A DNA stretch of 64,000 bases, from contig JASFEF010000001.1 of NCBI GenBank assembly GCA_050124975.1, positions 26,122-90,121 on the forward strand, written 5' to 3'. Below are positions 7-35,489 of the stretch, one piece after another. Below the pieces are notes generated by a model. The model saw only the letters and a list, made by a program, of their open reading frames with translations. It made no database searches and was not told the origin of the DNA. Made by a program: the position numbers and the translations under genes. This stretch comes from Candidatus Thorarchaeota archaeon (GTDB lineage Archaea > Asgardarchaeota > Thorarchaeia > Thorarchaeales > Thorarchaeaceae). Every line of letters begins with the position of its first letter. Within the stretch, counting starts at the first letter, position 1.

Positions 7-831
7 TCAGAACTTCTTCTTCATACCCATGGCATCACGATGGTATTTGCCGAATTCAGTTATTTTCGATAGATAGTTGCCTGAATATACAGGACCATCT
101 ACGCAGACTAGTGATCCAGTTGGATCAAGTGCACAAGTCCCGCATATCCCACAGCCACACTTCATGAACCTCTCAAGAGACGCCTGAAATTCCATTTTCC
201 GGTCCTTGACCAACTCATAGAGACCGTACATCATTGGCTCGGGACCACAAGAATACAATGTGTCAAACTCATTGTCACTCAAGATTTCTCTCACAGCCTC
301 AGGCGCGAGTCCCTTGAACCCCTCCGAGCCATCATCCGTTGATGTCTTCACACTCAATTTGCTATCTGATAGTTGTAAGAACTCATCAAAGAACATGAGT
401 TCCTGCCTCGTCTTAGCTGCAATCAGGACAGTCACTTCTGTTCCTTTTTTGTGGAGGCTATATACCAACGGTCTCAGTGGTGCCATTCCAACTCCTCCAC
501 CCACGACCAAAGCCTTCTGCGACTCGAGATTGAATGACGACCCAAAAGGCCCCCTGATACCAATCCAGTCTTTTGGTTGAAGTGTGCAGAGTGATTCAGT
601 TGCCTCACCAATAGGGAGGACTGTGATTCCTACTCTCGGTTGCTCCCAAAAGGAGATGCTCATAGGAATTTCATCGACTCCTTGAATCCATATCATTAGG
701 AACTGACCCGGAGAAAATCTGAAACTGGTACTTTTGACATTGAAAATAATCGTGAGTGCGGTGTCTGTTTCACGAATAACTTCAGAAACCCTCACAGATA
801 CTGGATTTCCCATGAGGTCATCCATACTCAT
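7..831 (-). CDS. pyrK: Dihydroorotate dehydrogenase electron-transfer subunit (PyrK)
   Basis: 274-aa ORF with a ferredoxin-reductase-like body and a C-terminal 2Fe-2S Cys cluster (CGCGICGTC). It overlaps the pyrD stop by 4 nt, consistent with an operon. Confidence 0.85.
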   Translation of the reverse strand: MSMDDLMGNPVSVRVSEVIRETDTALTIIFNVKSTSFRFSPGQFLMIWIQGVDEIPMSISFWEQPRVGITVLPIGEATESLCTLQPKDWIGIRGPFGSSFNLESQKALVVGGGVGMAPLRPLVYSLHKKGTEVTVLIAAKTRQELMFFDEFLQLSDSKLSVKTSTDDGSEGFKGLAPEAVREILSDNEFDTLYSCGPEPMMYGLYELVKDRKMEFQASLERFMKCGCGICGTCALDPTGSLVCVDGPVYSGNYLSKITEFGKYHRDAMGMKKKF

Positions 832-1703
832 GCTTTAGACCTCCACGCCGCACCAACTATTTCAGATACGTCCGAAATTCTCATCTCTTTCAGGTATTTC
901 TTGACGCCTTCTTTGATATTCGAGAAGATATCTAATCCTTCTATAAGTGCCGTACCAATCTGAATCGCACTTGCCCCCGCCAGATGCATCTCTATCGCAT
1001 CCTCCCATGTAGAAACACCCCCAACACCGATTATTGGAATTCCCAAGGTTTGGCTTAAATCATAGACGCATCTCACTGCAACTGGGAAGATAGGGGGTCC
1101 AGACAGTCCTCCTACTTTGTGACCTAGGACTGGACGCATCTGATGGATATCGATCTTTATACCTCTAAGTGTGTTAATGGCCACAATGGCATCAGCACCG
1201 GCTTCTTCTGCAGCCCTGCCAACAGTAACGATGTCAGAGGCATTAGGTGTTAGTTTCGCAAACACTTGGCAATCAACCGCGTCTTTAACCGCTGAAACAT
1301 ACTTGTGAGTCAAATCTGGACTGTGTGCTATCTGGCCAATCTCTGCATGAGGACAAGAGAGGTTCAGTTCAATAGCGGCTGGTTTCAGTTGGATTGCTTT
1401 TTGTGCTACTAGAGTGATTTCTTTGACTGTGCTTCCAAAGATACTGAGTATTACTGGTTTCTTCTTACTTCTCAGAAGCTCCATCTCTTCTCCGAATGCA
1501 TCAATCCCGGGATTCGTCAGCCCCACAGCATTGATGAGCCCTCCGTGAGATGTAGTTAGGACTGGTCCTGGATGACCCTTTCGAGGGGTCAGACCAATGG
1601 ACTTGGTCACTACAGCATCTGCACCAGATTCTATTACCCTGACCAAAGAAGCGGCTGTGACCCCAAGAATCCCAGATGCTAGCCAATACCCCTGTATCTT
1701 CAA
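828..1703 (-). CDS. pyrD: Dihydroorotate dehydrogenase catalytic subunit, class 1B (PyrD)
   Basis: 291 aa with TIM-barrel DHODH motifs (NLSCPH, GGLSGPPI, IGVGGV). Paired with pyrK. Confidence 0.9.
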   Translation of the reverse strand: MKIQGYWLASGILGVTAASLVRVIESGADAVVTKSIGLTPRKGHPGPVLTTSHGGLINAVGLTNPGIDAFGEEMELLRSKKKPVILSIFGSTVKEITLVAQKAIQLKPAAIELNLSCPHAEIGQIAHSPDLTHKYVSAVKDAVDCQVFAKLTPNASDIVTVGRAAEEAGADAIVAINTLRGIKIDIHQMRPVLGHKVGGLSGPPIFPVAVRCVYDLSQTLGIPIIGVGGVSTWEDAIEMHLAGASAIQIGTALIEGLDIFSNIKEGVKKYLKEMRISDVSEIVGAAWRSKA

Positions 1704-1789
1704 TCCGACACCTTGTAATGGACTACCTACTTGTCTGTAATAAGCTAAATGGAGCTAGGACGACAGACTTCTGACCCATTTCTTTGTTT

Positions 1790-2200
1790 AATGTGGATCC
1801 GTCACAAAAACAAGAAACCTCTGTGTTCCACCCATTTCTTGCCAGTGTCACCACCTCTCGAAGGCCAAAAGACTTCAAGATTAGCAAGAGCATTGTCAAT
1901 AATCATCGAGATGGGATCCCTCCTAAAGACCTGACTTCTTTCTCCTGTATTGATATCGGGTCATCACTCCCAATGACAGAGAGATTTTCCACAGTTCTTA
2001 CCACGGCAGGGTCATCATCACTCCTACCAGCGCCATCACTGAAACTAGCAAGGTCCGATTGGACATAGTGAACAGCCGCGGACTCTCTGAAACTTGATAA
2101 GAGTTCTTTCTTGGAGAGTAGGAACTTCCCTCTGAAAAATCTCCATCGGGCTTTCAGTCGTGTACATCGAGTCTTATCCAAGACATCAGTCCACATACTT
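1790..2200 (-). ncRNA. Unclassified conserved structured-RNA candidate, copy 1 (overlaps called ORF 1903..2211)
   Basis: Paralog of 33998..34413, about 74% identical with no indels over ~300 nt. Differences are spread evenly over codon positions. Conservation continues ~110 nt beyond the ORF stop. A terminal helix (AUGUGGA/UCCACAU) and hairpins are kept by compensatory changes. An AT-rich TATA-like box lies ~25 nt upstream. See findings. Confidence 0.5.
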
Positions 2201-2367
2201 AGTTCCTTCATATCATTCTATATTGATACATGCATATTAGCACATACAATTCTTCCTTTGACTGAGAGAGAAGGTTGGTTTGTCAAGACTTGGTGCTTTG
2301 TCGTAAAATAAACAGACTTATCCGGAGTTCAGCAGTTTCAGCACTCAGATTTTCATAGGAAGGGTTC

Positions 2368-3591
2368 ATGGTGCCGGTCTATATCTCACTCACAGCATTT
2401 GGGGTCTTTGTTCTCGATAAAGAAGGAAAAGTGGCAACAAAGTACTTGTCATATCCAGATGTGAATAAGGCTGCTAACAATCTGATAGCAGTCAATGAGG
2501 AAACCGTGACTGAATTCATTGAAAGCAGTCTGAAAGGATTGGAAAAAGAAGACATCATTGTAGAGGATGCTTTACTCGCACGCGCCCTTTCAAAGGTCAA
2601 AGACATCAATGTGAGAATAGAAGAAGGAACAGCTCCAAGATGGTTTAGAGATGGCCAAGATGATTACCTGATTGAGCATGGGGTTCTTGATTCAAGAGAA
2701 GATATTGCTACATTCAGGCGTGAGGTTTCCATTGTTTTAGCAAAGAGCAAGGTGAGCGCAGCCAGTGAAGAGAAGGACCTTCTCATCAAGAATGCAATTG
2801 ACGCTGTTGATGAGATAGACAAATCGATTAATGTACTGGTCATGCGTCTGCGTGAGTGGTATTCACTACATCACCCATCACTGAACAGATTGGTTGAGGA
2901 CCAAGAGATGTTTGCAAAGATTCTCAGTGCTTGCACTGGAAAGACAAACATCACTAATGATTGTCTAGAAAAAGCCGGGGTTCCTGATACATTGGTACAA
3001 CAGATAATCAAAGCCCTAACAGGAGACATTGGCGCTGAATTACTGGACTCTGACCTTCTTGTAATCACCAGCCTTGCAAAGAGTGTGAATGGCTTGTATC
3101 AGATGAGAAACGAGCTCGAGAGTTATATCTCCTCGATGATGCAGTCTGTAGCACCAAATCTCGGAGCATTGGCAGGGCCTATGATTGGTGCCCGACTGAT
3201 CAGTCTAGCTGGTTCCTTGAAGGAACTCGCCAGAAGACCATCTAGTACTATTCAGGTGTTTGGTGCTGAAAAAGCTCTGTTCAGAAGTCTGAAGACAGGA
3301 GCAGACCCACCAAAGCATGGCATCATCTATCGGGTCCCAGAGGTGAACACAGCACCGTTCTGGCAGAGAGGAAAGATAGCAAGGTCCTTGGCTGGAAAAC
3401 TCTCTATTGCAGCAAGAATTGATGCTTACTCTGACAGAGATGTTGGCGATAGTTTGAGGGAGCAGTTCATCTCAAGGGTAGAAGAGATTCGAAGACAAAA
3501 CCCTGAAGCACCATCTCCAAAGCCTAAACCTGAACCAAAGAAAAGACGTGAAAAGAGAGGGCGCCCAAAGAGAAGACGTGGAGGAAGGTAG
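2368..3591 (+). CDS. nop5: Nop56/58 (Nop5) box C/D RNP core protein
   Basis: 407 aa with a Nop domain (AEKALFRSLKTGADPPKHGIIY) and a C-terminal K/R/E-rich tail. Lies immediately upstream of fibrillarin. Confidence 0.9.
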   Translation: MVPVYISLTAFGVFVLDKEGKVATKYLSYPDVNKAANNLIAVNEETVTEFIESSLKGLEKEDIIVEDALLARALSKVKDINVRIEEGTAPRWFRDGQDDYLIEHGVLDSREDIATFRREVSIVLAKSKVSAASEEKDLLIKNAIDAVDEIDKSINVLVMRLREWYSLHHPSLNRLVEDQEMFAKILSACTGKTNITNDCLEKAGVPDTLVQQIIKALTGDIGAELLDSDLLVITSLAKSVNGLYQMRNELESYISSMMQSVAPNLGALAGPMIGARLISLAGSLKELARRPSSTIQVFGAEKALFRSLKTGADPPKHGIIYRVPEVNTAPFWQRGKIARSLAGKLSIAARIDAYSDRDVGDSLREQFISRVEEIRRQNPEAPSPKPKPEPKKRREKRGRPKRRRGGR

Positions 3592-3592
3592 A

Positions 3593-4291
3593 ATGGCAAC
3601 GGTGACAGCACATCAGTTCCCAGGGGTCTATACTATCAAGGACAAAGACCGCACATCACTCTGCACTGAGTCGTTTGCTCCCGGAATCAGTGTATACGGT
3701 GAAAAACTCATTGGTCATGAAGGTAAGGAGTATCGAATCTGGTCTGCACGGAGGTCCAAACTATCTGCCGCGATCAGAAATGGGCTCTCAGAAATGCCGA
3801 TTCAACCAGGTTCTAAGATACTTTACCTTGGTGCAGCATCTGGAACAACAGTGAGTCACTGCTCCGATATTTTAGGAAGTAACGGTGTAGTATACGCAGT
3901 TGAGTTTTCGGAACGGACTGCTAGGGAATTAATCCAGCTCACATTATCTCGAAGTAACATTGTACCAATTGTCGAAGATGCAAGACATCCAACAAGATAT
4001 GCCCCTATTGTGGCAGGACCGATAGAAGTTGTCTATCAGGATGTTGCTCAACCAAATCAGGCAACAATCCTCTATGAAAACCTCAAGACTTTCTGTTCCT
4101 TTGGAGCTTGGGGTATGATTGCAATCAAAGCCAGAAGCATCGATTCAGCATCAGCTCTTGATGAAATATACAGTAAGGAACTATCTACACTGGACAACCT
4201 TGGTCTGCAGATTATAGACAACATCGACCTGAGCCCCCTAGAAAAAGACCACCGGTTCATCGTCTGTCGAGTCACGGAGGACCTGACTTGA
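3593..4291 (+). CDS. flpA: Fibrillarin (rRNA/tRNA 2'-O-methyltransferase)
   Basis: SAM-MTase motif ILYLGAASGTTVSH. The ATG at 3593 lies 1 nt after the nop5 stop. The longer ORF from 3548 overlaps the nop5 tail and is unlikely. Confidence 0.92.
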   Translation: MATVTAHQFPGVYTIKDKDRTSLCTESFAPGISVYGEKLIGHEGKEYRIWSARRSKLSAAIRNGLSEMPIQPGSKILYLGAASGTTVSHCSDILGSNGVVYAVEFSERTARELIQLTLSRSNIVPIVEDARHPTRYAPIVAGPIEVVYQDVAQPNQATILYENLKTFCSFGAWGMIAIKARSIDSASALDEIYSKELSTLDNLGLQIIDNIDLSPLEKDHRFIVCRVTEDLT

Positions 4292-7767: not shown

Positions 7768-7905
7768 TGGTGGGGCAGATGGGATTCGAACCCACGATCG
7801 ACGAGTGTCTTCGTTGACGACGGTCTTTGTTGACCCCGTCCATTTCAGGCGCGAATTGCACCTAGATCTGGAGCCCGTCGCCATACCGGACTAGGCCACT
7901 GCCCC
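7768..7905 (-). tRNA. tRNA-Trp(CCA) with a ~60-nt canonical (37/38) intron and encoded CCA
   Basis: Acceptor GGGGCAG/CTGCCCC. Anticodon stem ACGGG/CTCGT with loop CUCCAGA. T-arm GTGGG-TTCGAAT-CCCAT. The intron contains a GACGG/CCGTC hairpin. Confidence 0.85.
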
Positions 7906-33872: not shown

Positions 33873-33997
33873 AATCGATTGTGAGAAGTCGGTTTAAGAT
33901 GTTTGTCGTATAGGTCAAAGTCATCTGGGTCAAGTAGACTCATTTCACTTACTCACTAATGATTGCCGACCAATAGTTAAGACCTTCTGACCAATTT

Positions 33998-34413
33998 CAT
34001 GTGGTTGAATGAGCATCAACTGCTAGAAATTTCTGTGTTCCACCCTTTTCCTGTCCAGTTTCGCCACTTTCTAAACTCAATATGAAATTAGAATTAACAG
34101 AAACTTTGTCCATTATCATCAGAATAGAATTCCTCCTATAGACCTGGTTTCCTTCTCCTGCATTGATGCTGGAACATCACGTCCAGCCACAGAGAGCGTT
34201 CCCACAGTTCTTACCACGGCGGGGTCATCATCACTCATCTTGGAGTCGTCACCGAAACCAATAAGGCCCGTTTGGACAAAGTGAACAGCCGCGGACTCTC
34301 CCGGACCTGATGTCTGATCCTTCCTGGAGAGTAAGGACTTCCCTTGAGAAGATTTCTTTCGGATTTTCAGTCGTGCACGTCGGACTTTGTCCAAGGTCCT
34401 AGTCCACATACCT
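33998..34413 (-). ncRNA. Unclassified conserved structured-RNA candidate, copy 2 (overlaps called ORF 34119..34424)
   Basis: Paralog of 1790..2200 with the same blocks, the same spacing and compensatory stem changes. An AT-rich box (aaataatt) lies ~25 nt upstream. See findings. Confidence 0.5.
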
Positions 34414-34581
34414 AGTCCTGTCATACAATTATTTGTTCTTGGAATCTTTTGAACTCGTACTTTAGTAGGAGAAATAAGGGCGGTCTTGGATTTATCAAGT
34501 GATTACAGCTTTATTCATGATGACATTGAGTGATACTCCGTTATTCTTATAACCAAAACCCGAGGACTGCCCGTCTAGCAT

Positions 34582-34688
34582 GGGTCGGTGGTCTAGCTTG
34601 GCTATGATTCCTGGTTTGGGTCTTGCGAACTCTTGTTCGCTAGCAAGACTCCAGGGGATCCCCGGTTCAAATCCGGGCCGGCCCACCA
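34582..34688 (+). tRNA. tRNA-Pro(UGG) with a ~29-nt canonical intron and encoded CCA
   Basis: Acceptor GGGTCGG/CCGGCCC. Anticodon stem CCTGG/CCAGG with loop UUUGGG. T-arm CCCGG-TTCAAAT-CCGGG. A TATA-like box (ttcttataacc) lies ~30 nt upstream. Confidence 0.85.
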
Positions 34689-34763
34689 CTTGTTCTTCAA
34701 ACCTATCTGCTACTTCGTCAATAGTCGAAATCCTTATGTTCAAAACGCCTCGAAATTCGTTCA

Positions 34764-35489
34764 ATGTCGTATCAATCATCTGTCCGTGAGCGTCTTGCTC
34801 GTCGTATTGCTGGGGAAATTGCGTTGTCAGAACACCCAGGACAGACCATGAAGATTTGGAGAGAACGCTTCAGACTACCACAGATTGTTCTTGCTGACCA
34901 TCTGGGTATCAGTCCTAGTGTGATTAGCGATTATGAGTCAGGACGAAGAAAGTCTCCAGGTACTTCGACTATACGCCGTTTTGTCATGGCACTCTTGACT
35001 TTGGATGAACGAAACGGTGGCCAAGTTGTAGCTGCGTTTGTCCGTCTTATGGACGTCAGCCTTGTTGATCTCAACATCGTTCTTGCAATGAGTGATTTCT
35101 CCTCTCCAATGACTGCGAAAGAGTTCTGTAAACGTCTAAAGTGTACTACTAAAACTGGCGAGAAGCTCATGGACAGAGAAATCTTTGGTTACACTCTGGT
35201 TGATGTGGAGCGAGCGGTGAAGGAGCTGAGTAGTGATGCTTTCTTGAAGCTCTTCGGTGCAACCACCGAGAGGTGCCTGATATTCACCAACGTCAACACA
35301 GGTAGAGCTCCAATGATTGCAATCAAATCCCAAGAGTTCAAACCATCACTTGTGGTCCTTCATGGTGTCACAGAAGTGGATAGACTTGCTCTTGAGCTGT
35401 CAGAGCAGATGAGAATTCCTCTTGCTGTAAACAAGGCGAGTTCTATTGAAACTCTGACACGTGAGCTGAGAGGGATAGAACCAGTCTAA
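34764..35489 (+). CDS. HTH (XRE-like) domain putative transcriptional regulator
   Basis: 241 aa with the HTH segment LPQIVLADHLGISPSVISDYESGRR. Confidence 0.55.
   Translation: MSYQSSVRERLARRIAGEIALSEHPGQTMKIWRERFRLPQIVLADHLGISPSVISDYESGRRKSPGTSTIRRFVMALLTLDERNGGQVVAAFVRLMDVSLVDLNIVLAMSDFSSPMTAKEFCKRLKCTTKTGEKLMDREIFGYTLVDVERAVKELSSDAFLKLFGATTERCLIFTNVNTGRAPMIAIKSQEFKPSLVVLHGVTEVDRLALELSEQMRIPLAVNKASSIETLTRELRGIEPV

Follow-up and report, generated by a model that had tools for sequence, protein, structure and literature searches.

What do two related minus-strand loci of a Candidatus Thorarchaeota archaeon encode, when each carries a called open reading frame (ORF) of about 100 codons and yet shows no third-position excess in that frame? 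The loci lie in a 64,000-nt stretch of contig JASFEF010000001.1 (assembly GCA_050124975.1, positions 26,122 to 90,121), hereafter the window; the ORF of copy 1 has 102 codons (1903–2211) and that of copy 2 has 101 (34119–34424). The original prediction regarded the two loci as a structured RNA that could not be assigned to any family. The structured RNA is borne out here, but the region can be assigned: it is the 3′-terminal, omega-RNA-type region of a TnpB insertion sequence. Each locus holds a shortened version of such an element from Thorarchaeota, which lacks tnpB and descends from the 3′ end of that gene. We consider it probable, at roughly 0.7, that these TnpB-less copies carry an orphan guide scaffold of the omega-RNA type, which would be served in trans by TnpB.

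Descent from the 3′ end of a Thorarchaeota tnpB

The minus strands of 1903–2211 and 34119–34424 can be aligned without gaps, with 80 differences in 306 nt. These fall 26/30/24 on codon positions 1/2/3, and 12 of the changed codons are synonymous while 44 are non-synonymous; an earlier hand count had given nearly the same figures (79 differences in 303 nt, 25/30/24, and 12 of 55 changed codons synonymous). The conserved blocks that had been noted between the copies were all recovered at their positions, including GAGAGTCCGCGGCTGTTCAC (2068–2087 and 34281–34300) and AGTGATGATGACCCnGCCGTGGTAAGAACTGTGG (1989–2022 and 34202–34235), both invariant, and a further invariant block, GGGTGGAACACAGA, which lies past the stop codon (1820–1833 and 34032–34045). 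The similarity beyond the stop codon, likewise noted before, runs for ~135 nt with small indels and ends in …GGGTC (1773 in copy 1, 33989 in copy 2). A profile built from 71 relatives and searched with nhmmer finds exactly two copies in the window, both on the minus strand, at 2216–1760 (E = 1e-124) and 34429–33975 (E = 1.6e-125).

A protein search with the 102-aa product of copy 1 returned 94 matches, and all those with a named source are from Candidatus Thorarchaeota (Asgard archaea), with several per metagenome-assembled genome (MAG). One ORF homologue is fused to the zinc-ribbon/RuvC-III C-terminus of TnpB. We examined 80 genomic loci (loci outside the window are labelled here with L-numbers), and in ~22 of them the same frame extends 400–528 codons upstream into TnpB. 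The upstream-extended protein matches Pfam PF07282 at 1.2e-12 and the TnpB chain 9nzp_A of the PDB at 4.3e-12, with weaker matches to Cas12f chains; solved TnpB/Cas12f structures are homologous to it up to residue ~450 of 560, the point at which the tail starts. A search with the TnpB core found 625 relatives. The best 120 of these are 75–99% identical, nearly all of them are 538–587 aa long apart from four partial sequences of 458–503 aa, and every one with a named source is from Thorarchaeota. Because the ORF frame continues into TnpB in relatives, the window element corresponds to the last ~105 codons of tnpB plus the following ~135 nt, and the 101/102-codon ORF, as judged by this comparison with full-length relatives, is the C-terminal end of a TnpB of 556–587 aa in many loci. 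In TnpB elements, the omega-RNA that serves as guide is encoded at this position, in the 3′ end of tnpB and the stretch that follows it.

The full-length (F) form of the element is ~2 kb long and has tnpB as its sole gene. No transposase or Cas1 gene was found beside tnpB in 14 F loci, a survey in which distant or trans-encoded copies were not searched for, and ten genes neighbouring F-form tnpB that were scanned with Pfam are housekeeping genes. The TnpB of this family has an invariant Gly at the position of the RuvC-II Glu, where it reads IAIGRL instead of the IQMEDL of Cas12f/TnpB (IAIGRLKNIR; L007:1600-3312 and 20 other F loci). The RuvC-I Asp (GIDLG), the RuvC-III NADxN motif and a C4 zinc finger (CxxC…CxxC) are also invariant. 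Copies of the family are numerous, exceeding 20 in some MAGs, and short and full-length forms occur together in at least five MAGs, where a supply of TnpB in trans to the short copies is plausible. As the two window copies have no tnpB, they are orphan copies.

The short (S) form, to which both window copies belong, consists of a promoter-like piece, the last ~310 nt of tnpB and ~135 nt to the right end. All S copies share one junction, at which a conserved segment of ~41 nt (consensus AAATTGTATGAGTTCATATACTCGTATCAACATAGAATATT) meets the tail at the ATG, with a stop codon two codons upstream. This 5′ segment is conserved in 24–37 S copies and is unlike the tnpB coding sequence at that place. 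It resembles instead a stretch ~95 nt upstream of tnpB in F elements (AATGTACGAGTACATATCC): 15 of 15 bases match between copy 2 and L016, 18 of 21 between the S consensus and L024 (p ~0.005–0.015), and the best match falls at the same position in seven of nine loci. Given this resemblance, the S form looks like an internal-deletion derivative.

In copy 1 the 5′ segment (GAATTGTATGTGCTAATATGCATGTATCAATATAGAATGAT, 2212–2252, minus strand) contains the TATA-like CTAATATGCA at 2231–2240 and, from its conservation among S forms and its likeness to the region upstream of tnpB, is a probable promoter derived from that region. The corresponding segment of copy 2 (…AAAGTACGAGTTCAAAAGATTCCAAGAACAAATAATTGT, 34425–34466, minus strand) includes TACGAGTTCAAAAGA, the 15 bases shared with the tnpB upstream region of L016. 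A WWATATAC-like motif is conserved ~21–28 nt before the ATG in S copies, and a role of the TATA-like box as a promoter element is plausible. To the left of its 5′ segment, copy 1 has a CT-rich left arm (2253–2311, minus strand) that holds CTTGAC; it is poorly conserved in the family and absent from the six empty sites described below.

F and S forms end at the same 3′ boundary, …GGTYA. Conservation falls from at least 80% to background within ~3 nt after it, and the flanks are unrelated between copies. The structured-RNA core thus delimited, an omega-RNA-type scaffold by its features, spans 1773–2211 in copy 1 (minus strand), up to the right end of the element, where family conservation stops between …GGTC and the following A; in copy 2 it spans 33990–34424 (minus strand) and includes the 101-codon ORF. 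By analogy with TnpB omega-RNAs, the 20 nt after the right end would be the guide: AGAAGTCTGTCGTCCTAGCT in copy 1 (1753–1772, minus strand), of which the first 10 nt are also the right direct repeat, and AGAAGGTCTTAACTATTGGT in copy 2 (33969–33988, minus strand); each of the two sequences is unique in the window.

Some further features were observed upstream of tnpB in F loci. The last ~22 nt of the right end (ACCATAAGAAATGGGTCAGA) are found again ~45 nt before the tnpB ATG in, for example, L072 and L049; the reverse complement of an arm of the right-end hairpin lies 45–110 nt upstream of tnpB (GGGAGTGAACTCGACTG compared with CAGTTGAGGTTCACTC); and a TTTATATA box is located ~27 nt before the ATG.

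Selection on a folded RNA of the ORF strand

The fold was computed with RNAalifold from an alignment of 71 sequences, comprising F and S copies collected by an ORF-independent scan for a DNA motif. The consensus has 87 pairs in 19 helices, and 47 of these pairs have compensatory changes on both sides. Across the alignment, 96.4% of cells are paired, compared with 39–45% when the partners are slid by one to three columns, and there are 419 double-change cells, compared with 57–95 in the slid controls; none of 500 shuffles attained the observed pairing values. G-U pairs far exceed A-C pairs (732 versus 72), which assigns the fold to the ORF strand, i.e., the minus strand of the window. Of the consensus pairs, 83 form in copy 1 and 80 in copy 2 despite the divergence of 26% of sites between them, and 11 pairs are changed on both sides from one copy to the other and yet are still paired. 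The covariation is therefore strong and strand-specific, as predicted for a structured RNA, and it is an RNA signature rather than a protein-coding one.

Covarying helices are found on both sides of the stop codon, with helices 6, 9, 10 and 13 within the ORF and helices 17–19 beyond it. Helices 7–10 (2001–2087, minus strand) contain the invariant block GAGAGUCCGCGGCUGUUCAC and its partners, with a CCGCGG/CCGUGG helix that includes an invariant G-U pair and a covarying inner hairpin; eight of the ten pairs of helix 10 are changed on both sides. In helices 17–19 (1836–1890, minus strand), 15 of 16 pairs are changed on both sides, and since they follow the stop codon, this stretch cannot be coding. 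Towards the 5′ end of the RNA is a variable hairpin (CUGAUGUCUUGGAUAAGACUCGAU, 2166–2189, minus strand) that has 67 distinct sequences in the 71 members, nearly all of which fold (mean minimum free energy (MFE) −7.0 versus −2.8 kcal/mol for shuffles); a 9-nt (three-codon) insertion in some copies corresponds to a longer stem of this hairpin. The right-end hairpin UGUG…CACA (1792–1806, minus strand; family consensus GUUGAGGUUCACUCACC) varies in stem sequence between copies, with a mean MFE of −3.3 versus −1.3 for shuffles. The right-end region contains GTTCACTCA, and its family consensus reads GAGGTTCACTCACC / …CAGTTGAGGTTCACTCACC… at alignment columns ~466–484. A terminal helix, AUGUGGA/UCCACAU, that had been proposed for the RNA is not supported by covariation: it can form in copy 1, but across the family the 5′ columns pair about equally well with three 3′ registers, with only two pair types in each.

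GAUGA or RUGAUGA-like motifs are found at three places of the RNA that are conserved and mostly unpaired (2011–2020, ~1958–1964 and 1903–1908 in copy 1, and likewise in copy 2), and from their sequence may be K-turn (L7Ae-binding) motifs.

The tnpB genes themselves carry two different signatures. Among 21 intact tnpB genes, divergence in the core is 0.187/0.121/0.441 by codon position and 59% of changed codons are synonymous, while in the last ~110 codons it is 0.182/0.170/0.219 and 30% are synonymous. The switch from a coding to a flat signature occurs at codons ~435–450. The low third-position divergence in the tail indicates that synonymous sites are strongly constrained, as expected for an overlapping RNA gene. 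The same flatness is seen between orthologues. L096 is a true orthologue of copy 2 and its nearest family member; the identity of the two elements is 0.94/0.92/0.91 by codon position, compared with 0.79 at third positions of the neighbouring genes, so the element evolves ~2.6 times more slowly than these positions (8% versus 21% divergence). More distant syntenic copies are likewise flat across codon positions, and no third-position excess was found in the paralogue, syntenic, orthologue or intragenic (tnpB tail) comparisons.

AlphaFold2 gave no confident fold for the predicted protein (predicted local distance difference test, pLDDT, 58; predicted template modelling score, pTM, 0.17), and no Pfam domain was detected. 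In about one-fifth of the S copies (L083, L089, L179, L183 and others) the ORF is cut short by a premature stop or disrupted in its N-terminal part, while the nucleotide sequence is conserved. In our reading, what selection maintains in the 440-nt stretch is an RNA fold of the ORF strand and not a protein, and the ORF of copy 1 is best described as a relic of the TnpB C-terminal tail that overlaps this RNA. Coding on the plus strand was considered and rejected: there is a 94-aa plus-strand ORF in copy 1 and none in copy 2.

Insertion sites, flanking repeats and occupancy

The gene positions around copy 1 agree with the arrangement described before, i.e., a divergent nop5–fibrillarin pair (nop5, 2368–3591; fibrillarin, 3548–4291; both plus strand) on one side and, on the same strand as copy 1, pyrD (828–1703, minus strand) with pyrK (7–831, minus strand) on the other. 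Copy 1, which lies 69 nt before pyrD, separates the divergent promoters of nop5 and pyrD. Using Pfam labels for the genes syntenic to this neighbourhood, we found six relatives (L202–L207) in which nop5 and pyrD are separated by 45–117 nt, compared with 664 nt in the window (1704–2367). The empty site in L202 reads CCGGATAAGTCTGTCGTCC (empty-site sequence: CCGGATAAGTCTGTCGTCCTAGCT), and the window allele reads CCGG-ATAAGTCTGT (2321–2312), then the element (2311…1773), then AGAAGTCTGT (1772–1763)-CGTCC. Comparison with this empty site delimits ATAAGTCTGT (2312–2321, minus strand) as the 10-bp left direct repeat, a target-site duplication, and in these aligned alleles copy 1 is seen to be an insertion into the nop5/pyrD site. 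Together, the empty sites and the flanking direct repeat indicate that the copies are mobile-element insertions and not a duplicated cellular RNA gene. The gene context of copy 2 is unrelated to that of copy 1, and no flanking direct repeat is recognisable around copy 2.

Direct repeats of 8–13 nt also surround other S and F copies (L136, L168, L194, L197 and L161). Flanking repeats of at least 10 nt are present in 16 of 48 elements, compared with 3 of 48 in a reversed-flank control. They usually begin with AT, preceded by GA or GG, and are variable in length, as is the left arm, which ranges from 45 to 220 nt among copies. The variable repeats and left arm do not fit IS200/IS605, IS607 or a DDE enzyme with a fixed stagger.

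The nop5/pyrD site is occupied in three divergent lineages (the window genome, L140 and L083) and cleanly empty in the six relatives mentioned above. The pyrD, pyrK and nop5 trees concur in pairing the window genome with the empty L202 as its sister, and the occupied L083 with its sisters L205 and L206, which are both empty. Such patchy occupancy needs at least three hits at one site or at least four precise losses. Homing into empty alleles would explain it, and so would saturation combined with repeat-mediated precise deletion. The syntenic copies are not nearest to one another in the family, and no relationship between their left arms can be detected. Neither family distances nor left-arm similarity supports an origin of these copies from a common ancestor, and for this reason the argument for selection in situ rests only on the pair formed by copy 2 and L096.

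Other features of the window were noted near these loci. Alleles with and without the insert share the conserved TCCATTTAGCTTATTAC and ACAAGGTG upstream of pyrD (1704–1762), probably the promoter and ribosome-binding site of this gene, which the insertion has not disrupted. A 94-aa ORF (34495–34779, minus strand) ends immediately before copy 2 and has conserved counterparts in L096 and L101 (0.96 and 0.78 nucleotide identity, respectively). An Rfam tRNA match (50 bits, full model) covers 135 nt at 7771–7905 on the minus strand and presumably represents an intron-containing tRNA; ARAGORN finds no tRNA in the window.

Relation to known systems and rival explanations

Like the TnpB omega-RNA (reRNA) of OMEGA systems such as ISDra2 of the IS200/IS605 family, the RNA described here shares its strand with tnpB, overlaps that gene at the 3′ end and extends to the right end, as seen in the F relatives. 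It also resembles such RNAs in having a covarying structured scaffold, in the sharp end of its conservation where a guide would start, and in a nucleotide constraint that overrides the coding signature in the tnpB overlap (third-position divergence of 0.44 in the core and 0.22 in the tail). Unlike ISDra2-type loci, the window copies are without tnpB and have no sequence or Rfam match to known omega-RNAs. IS200/IS605 elements insert without target-site duplication, 3′ of a short TAM-like motif, whereas alignment of copy 1 with the empty site reveals a direct repeat of 10 bp. Furthermore, neither a Y1 nor a serine TnpA, as in IS200/IS605 or IS607, lies beside tnpB in the 14 F loci, although these genes were not searched for elsewhere in the genomes. 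The presence of a duplication and the lack of an adjacent TnpA both set the family apart from canonical IS200/IS605. With respect to the ends of the S form, the right end is kept, the 5′ segment resembles the tnpB upstream region, and the left terminus is variable.

The architecture is most similar to that of PATE-like derivatives of IS200/IS605, which are non-autonomous and encode omega-RNAs that need TnpB in trans (Meers et al., 2023, bioRxiv 10.1101/2023.03.14.532601). The two share the lack of a transposase or nuclease gene, a right end that is kept with its guide-RNA gene, a multi-copy distribution and an expected supply of TnpB in trans. The family here differs from PATE-like elements in being archaeal and in having an open relic ORF of 100 codons, flanking repeats, a variable left arm and only partial left-end homology. 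Among TnpB groups linked to Asgard archaea, Cas1H-Asgard-1/2 are described as having the motif GTTCACTCA downstream of tnpB, and repeats flank the Asgard TnpB loci; the account given of these groups leaves the downstream RNA unresolved (Altae-Tran et al., 2023, PNAS, PMC10691335). In terms of this motif description, the present family is like Cas1H-Asgard-1/2 in being an Asgard tnpB with GTTCACTCA near its right end. Unlike aCas1-associated Asgard TnpB, it has no Cas1 next to tnpB in the 14 F loci. The same survey describes, for its RIIr TnpBs, a replacement of the RuvC-II Glu by Gly that is treated as “rearranged” rather than inactive and thought to be compensated by another glutamate (PMC10691335). 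By motif pattern as described there, the family TnpB resembles the RIIr groups, since it has Gly at the RuvC-II Glu position and keeps the RuvC-I Asp, NADxN and the C4 zinc finger.

If the window copies are orphan guide scaffolds, the following mechanism can be proposed, in which transcription, TnpB binding and guide use are inferred. The S element would be transcribed from its own conserved TATA-like box, and the transcript would fold into the scaffold and read past the right end into the flank (1772–1753 in copy 1, 33988–33969 in copy 2). The resulting RNA would be an omega-RNA comprising the scaffold and an adjoining guide of ~20 nt. TnpB from full-length copies elsewhere in the genome would bind it in trans, and cleavage by this complex at insertion sites that are still empty would favour retention of the element. 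The 101/102-codon ORF would be the leftover TnpB C-terminal tail overlapping the RNA gene.

Several observations weigh against such a guide scaffold. Characterised TnpB scaffolds are ~150–250 nt long, and the conserved region here, at ~440 nt and with an overlap of ~105 tnpB codons, is long by comparison. The 64-kb window contains neither tnpB nor a full-length left end, Rfam scans (of the window at the gathering threshold and of both loci at E ≤ 10) gave no relevant family, and the putative guides of both copies match nothing else in the window at ≤3 mismatches. The homology of the 5′ segment to the tnpB upstream region is modestly significant by the match statistics given above, and flanking repeats of 8–13 nt are not expected for IS200/IS605 or IS607. 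The open frame itself also has to be accounted for. Of 106 copies, sampled by a 20-mer DNA motif alone and hence not biased towards intact ORFs, ~100 have neither a stop nor a frameshift in the 60 codons that follow the motif. In frame 1, F copies have no new stops and S copies have six, compared with 23–40 in frames 2 and 3; at risk sites, one step away from a stop codon, the stop-making base accounts for 11–12% of the variants in frame 1, compared with 29–44% in frames 2 and 3. The translated product may therefore be of importance too. In the F form, where the frame is the end of TnpB, a degree of coding constraint is to be expected; this tail is basic and then acidic, and is probably disordered. 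The open-frame signal is weaker in S than in F elements, and translation of the S-form ORF, though possible, is not needed to explain the data.

In a rival reading, the ORFs encode a protein of ~100 aa that evolves fast and is for the most part disordered, a stand-alone TnpB tail translated from a leaderless mRNA. In its favour, the ATG and reading frame are retained in most S copies, the final 60 codons are intact in nearly all sampled copies, the six new stops of frame 1 in S copies compare with 31 and 23 in frames 2 and 3, and the TATA-like box is spaced so that transcription would start at about the ATG. We nevertheless regard such a protein as quite improbable: codon positions evolve without third-position excess in every comparison, conservation and covarying helices run past the stop, indels within the ORF are stem extensions, prematurely terminated copies keep their nucleotide sequence, and the product has neither a Pfam domain nor a confident predicted structure. 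Constraint on the RNA and transition/transversion bias at the risk sites, moreover, confound part of the stop depletion. The original statement that the loci are “not a protein” thus stands as regards the missing codon periodicity, but is not settled, as the frame is open in all F genes and above chance in S copies. It also seems unlikely that the copies are inert transposon debris, whose similarity would stem from recent copying or gene conversion and whose fold would be inherited from active F elements. Debris would agree with the high copy number in some MAGs, with syntenic copies in divergent genomes that are no closer mutually than to random family members, and with the patchy occupancy of the nop5/pyrD site across the host-gene tree. 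It is at odds with two window copies that are 26% different and yet form 83 and 80 of 87 pairs, with 11 double-changed pairs still paired, with the slow divergence of copy 2 and L096 (8% versus 21% at neighbouring synonymous sites), and with an S form that shares one junction throughout and that, for all its wide diversification, is still 96% paired.

A takeover of the RNA by the host is a very unlikely alternative, whether as a leader or regulator of downstream genes (pyrD-pyrK in the case of copy 1) or as a guide for a TldR-type domesticated regulator. It draws on the position of copy 1, 69 nt upstream of pyrD on the same strand, on the copies at the same site in three divergent genomes and on the lack of the canonical RuvC-II glutamate in the family TnpB. 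However, the gene context of copy 2 is unrelated and S copies are found in many different places, the pyrD promoter sequence is the same in close relatives whose site is empty, and E-to-G variants of RuvC-II are described as rearranged, not inactive. No terminator or anti-terminator feature was found either, in a bacterial promoter/terminator scan that is uninformative for an archaeon. We give hardly any credence to another known RNA class. Archaeal RNase P RNA and signal recognition particle (SRP) RNA had been named as Rfam candidates, and scans of both loci gave no match to them. GUGAUGA-like motifs, present three times in conserved unpaired stretches, and weak C/D-box small nucleolar RNA matches of 11–15 bits in copy 2 could point to a cluster of C/D-box small RNAs, but the weak Rfam matches (E = 2–10) are far below the gathering scores of 35–60, there is no regular C-D′-C′-D spacing, and the stretch is the physical 3′ end of tnpB in relatives. 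A C/D-box cluster, which the RUGAUGA motifs near nop5/fibrillarin had brought to mind, was rejected for lack of box spacing and with matches at chance level only; the nop5 neighbourhood is accidental, given that empty sites exist.

A bolder possibility, which we consider doubtful, is that the S form is a stand-alone guide-RNA gene under selection at fixed chromosomal sites of Asgard archaea, working with a trans-encoded TnpB with a rearranged RuvC and with a mode of mobilisation that leaves repeats of 8–13 nt. At the nop5/pyrD site, either RNA-guided homing would then restore the element repeatedly or a host function would keep it in place. If true, this would be a natural system of one nuclease and many dispersed guides, a step toward a CRISPR-like organisation, located in the closest archaeal relatives of eukaryotes and mobilised in a manner unlike that of characterised TnpB transposons.

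On the reading that we prefer, an orphan, omega-RNA-bearing insertion sequence derivative is a known kind of element and not a new RNA class, while this particular family is newly recognised and uncatalogued. Its flanking repeats and open relic ORF remain small puzzles. For annotation, at least 94 Thorarchaeota “hypothetical proteins” (PVJ05_00165-like) are better read as a non-coding RNA gene, and so is the ~105-residue C-terminal tail of several hundred TnpB annotations. The analysis also yields a secondary-structure model, supported by covariation, of the guide-RNA region in one Asgard TnpB family, a region left unresolved in the main TnpB survey's account of these groups, and the natural occupied and empty alleles of a single site are material for tests of RNA-guided homing in archaea.

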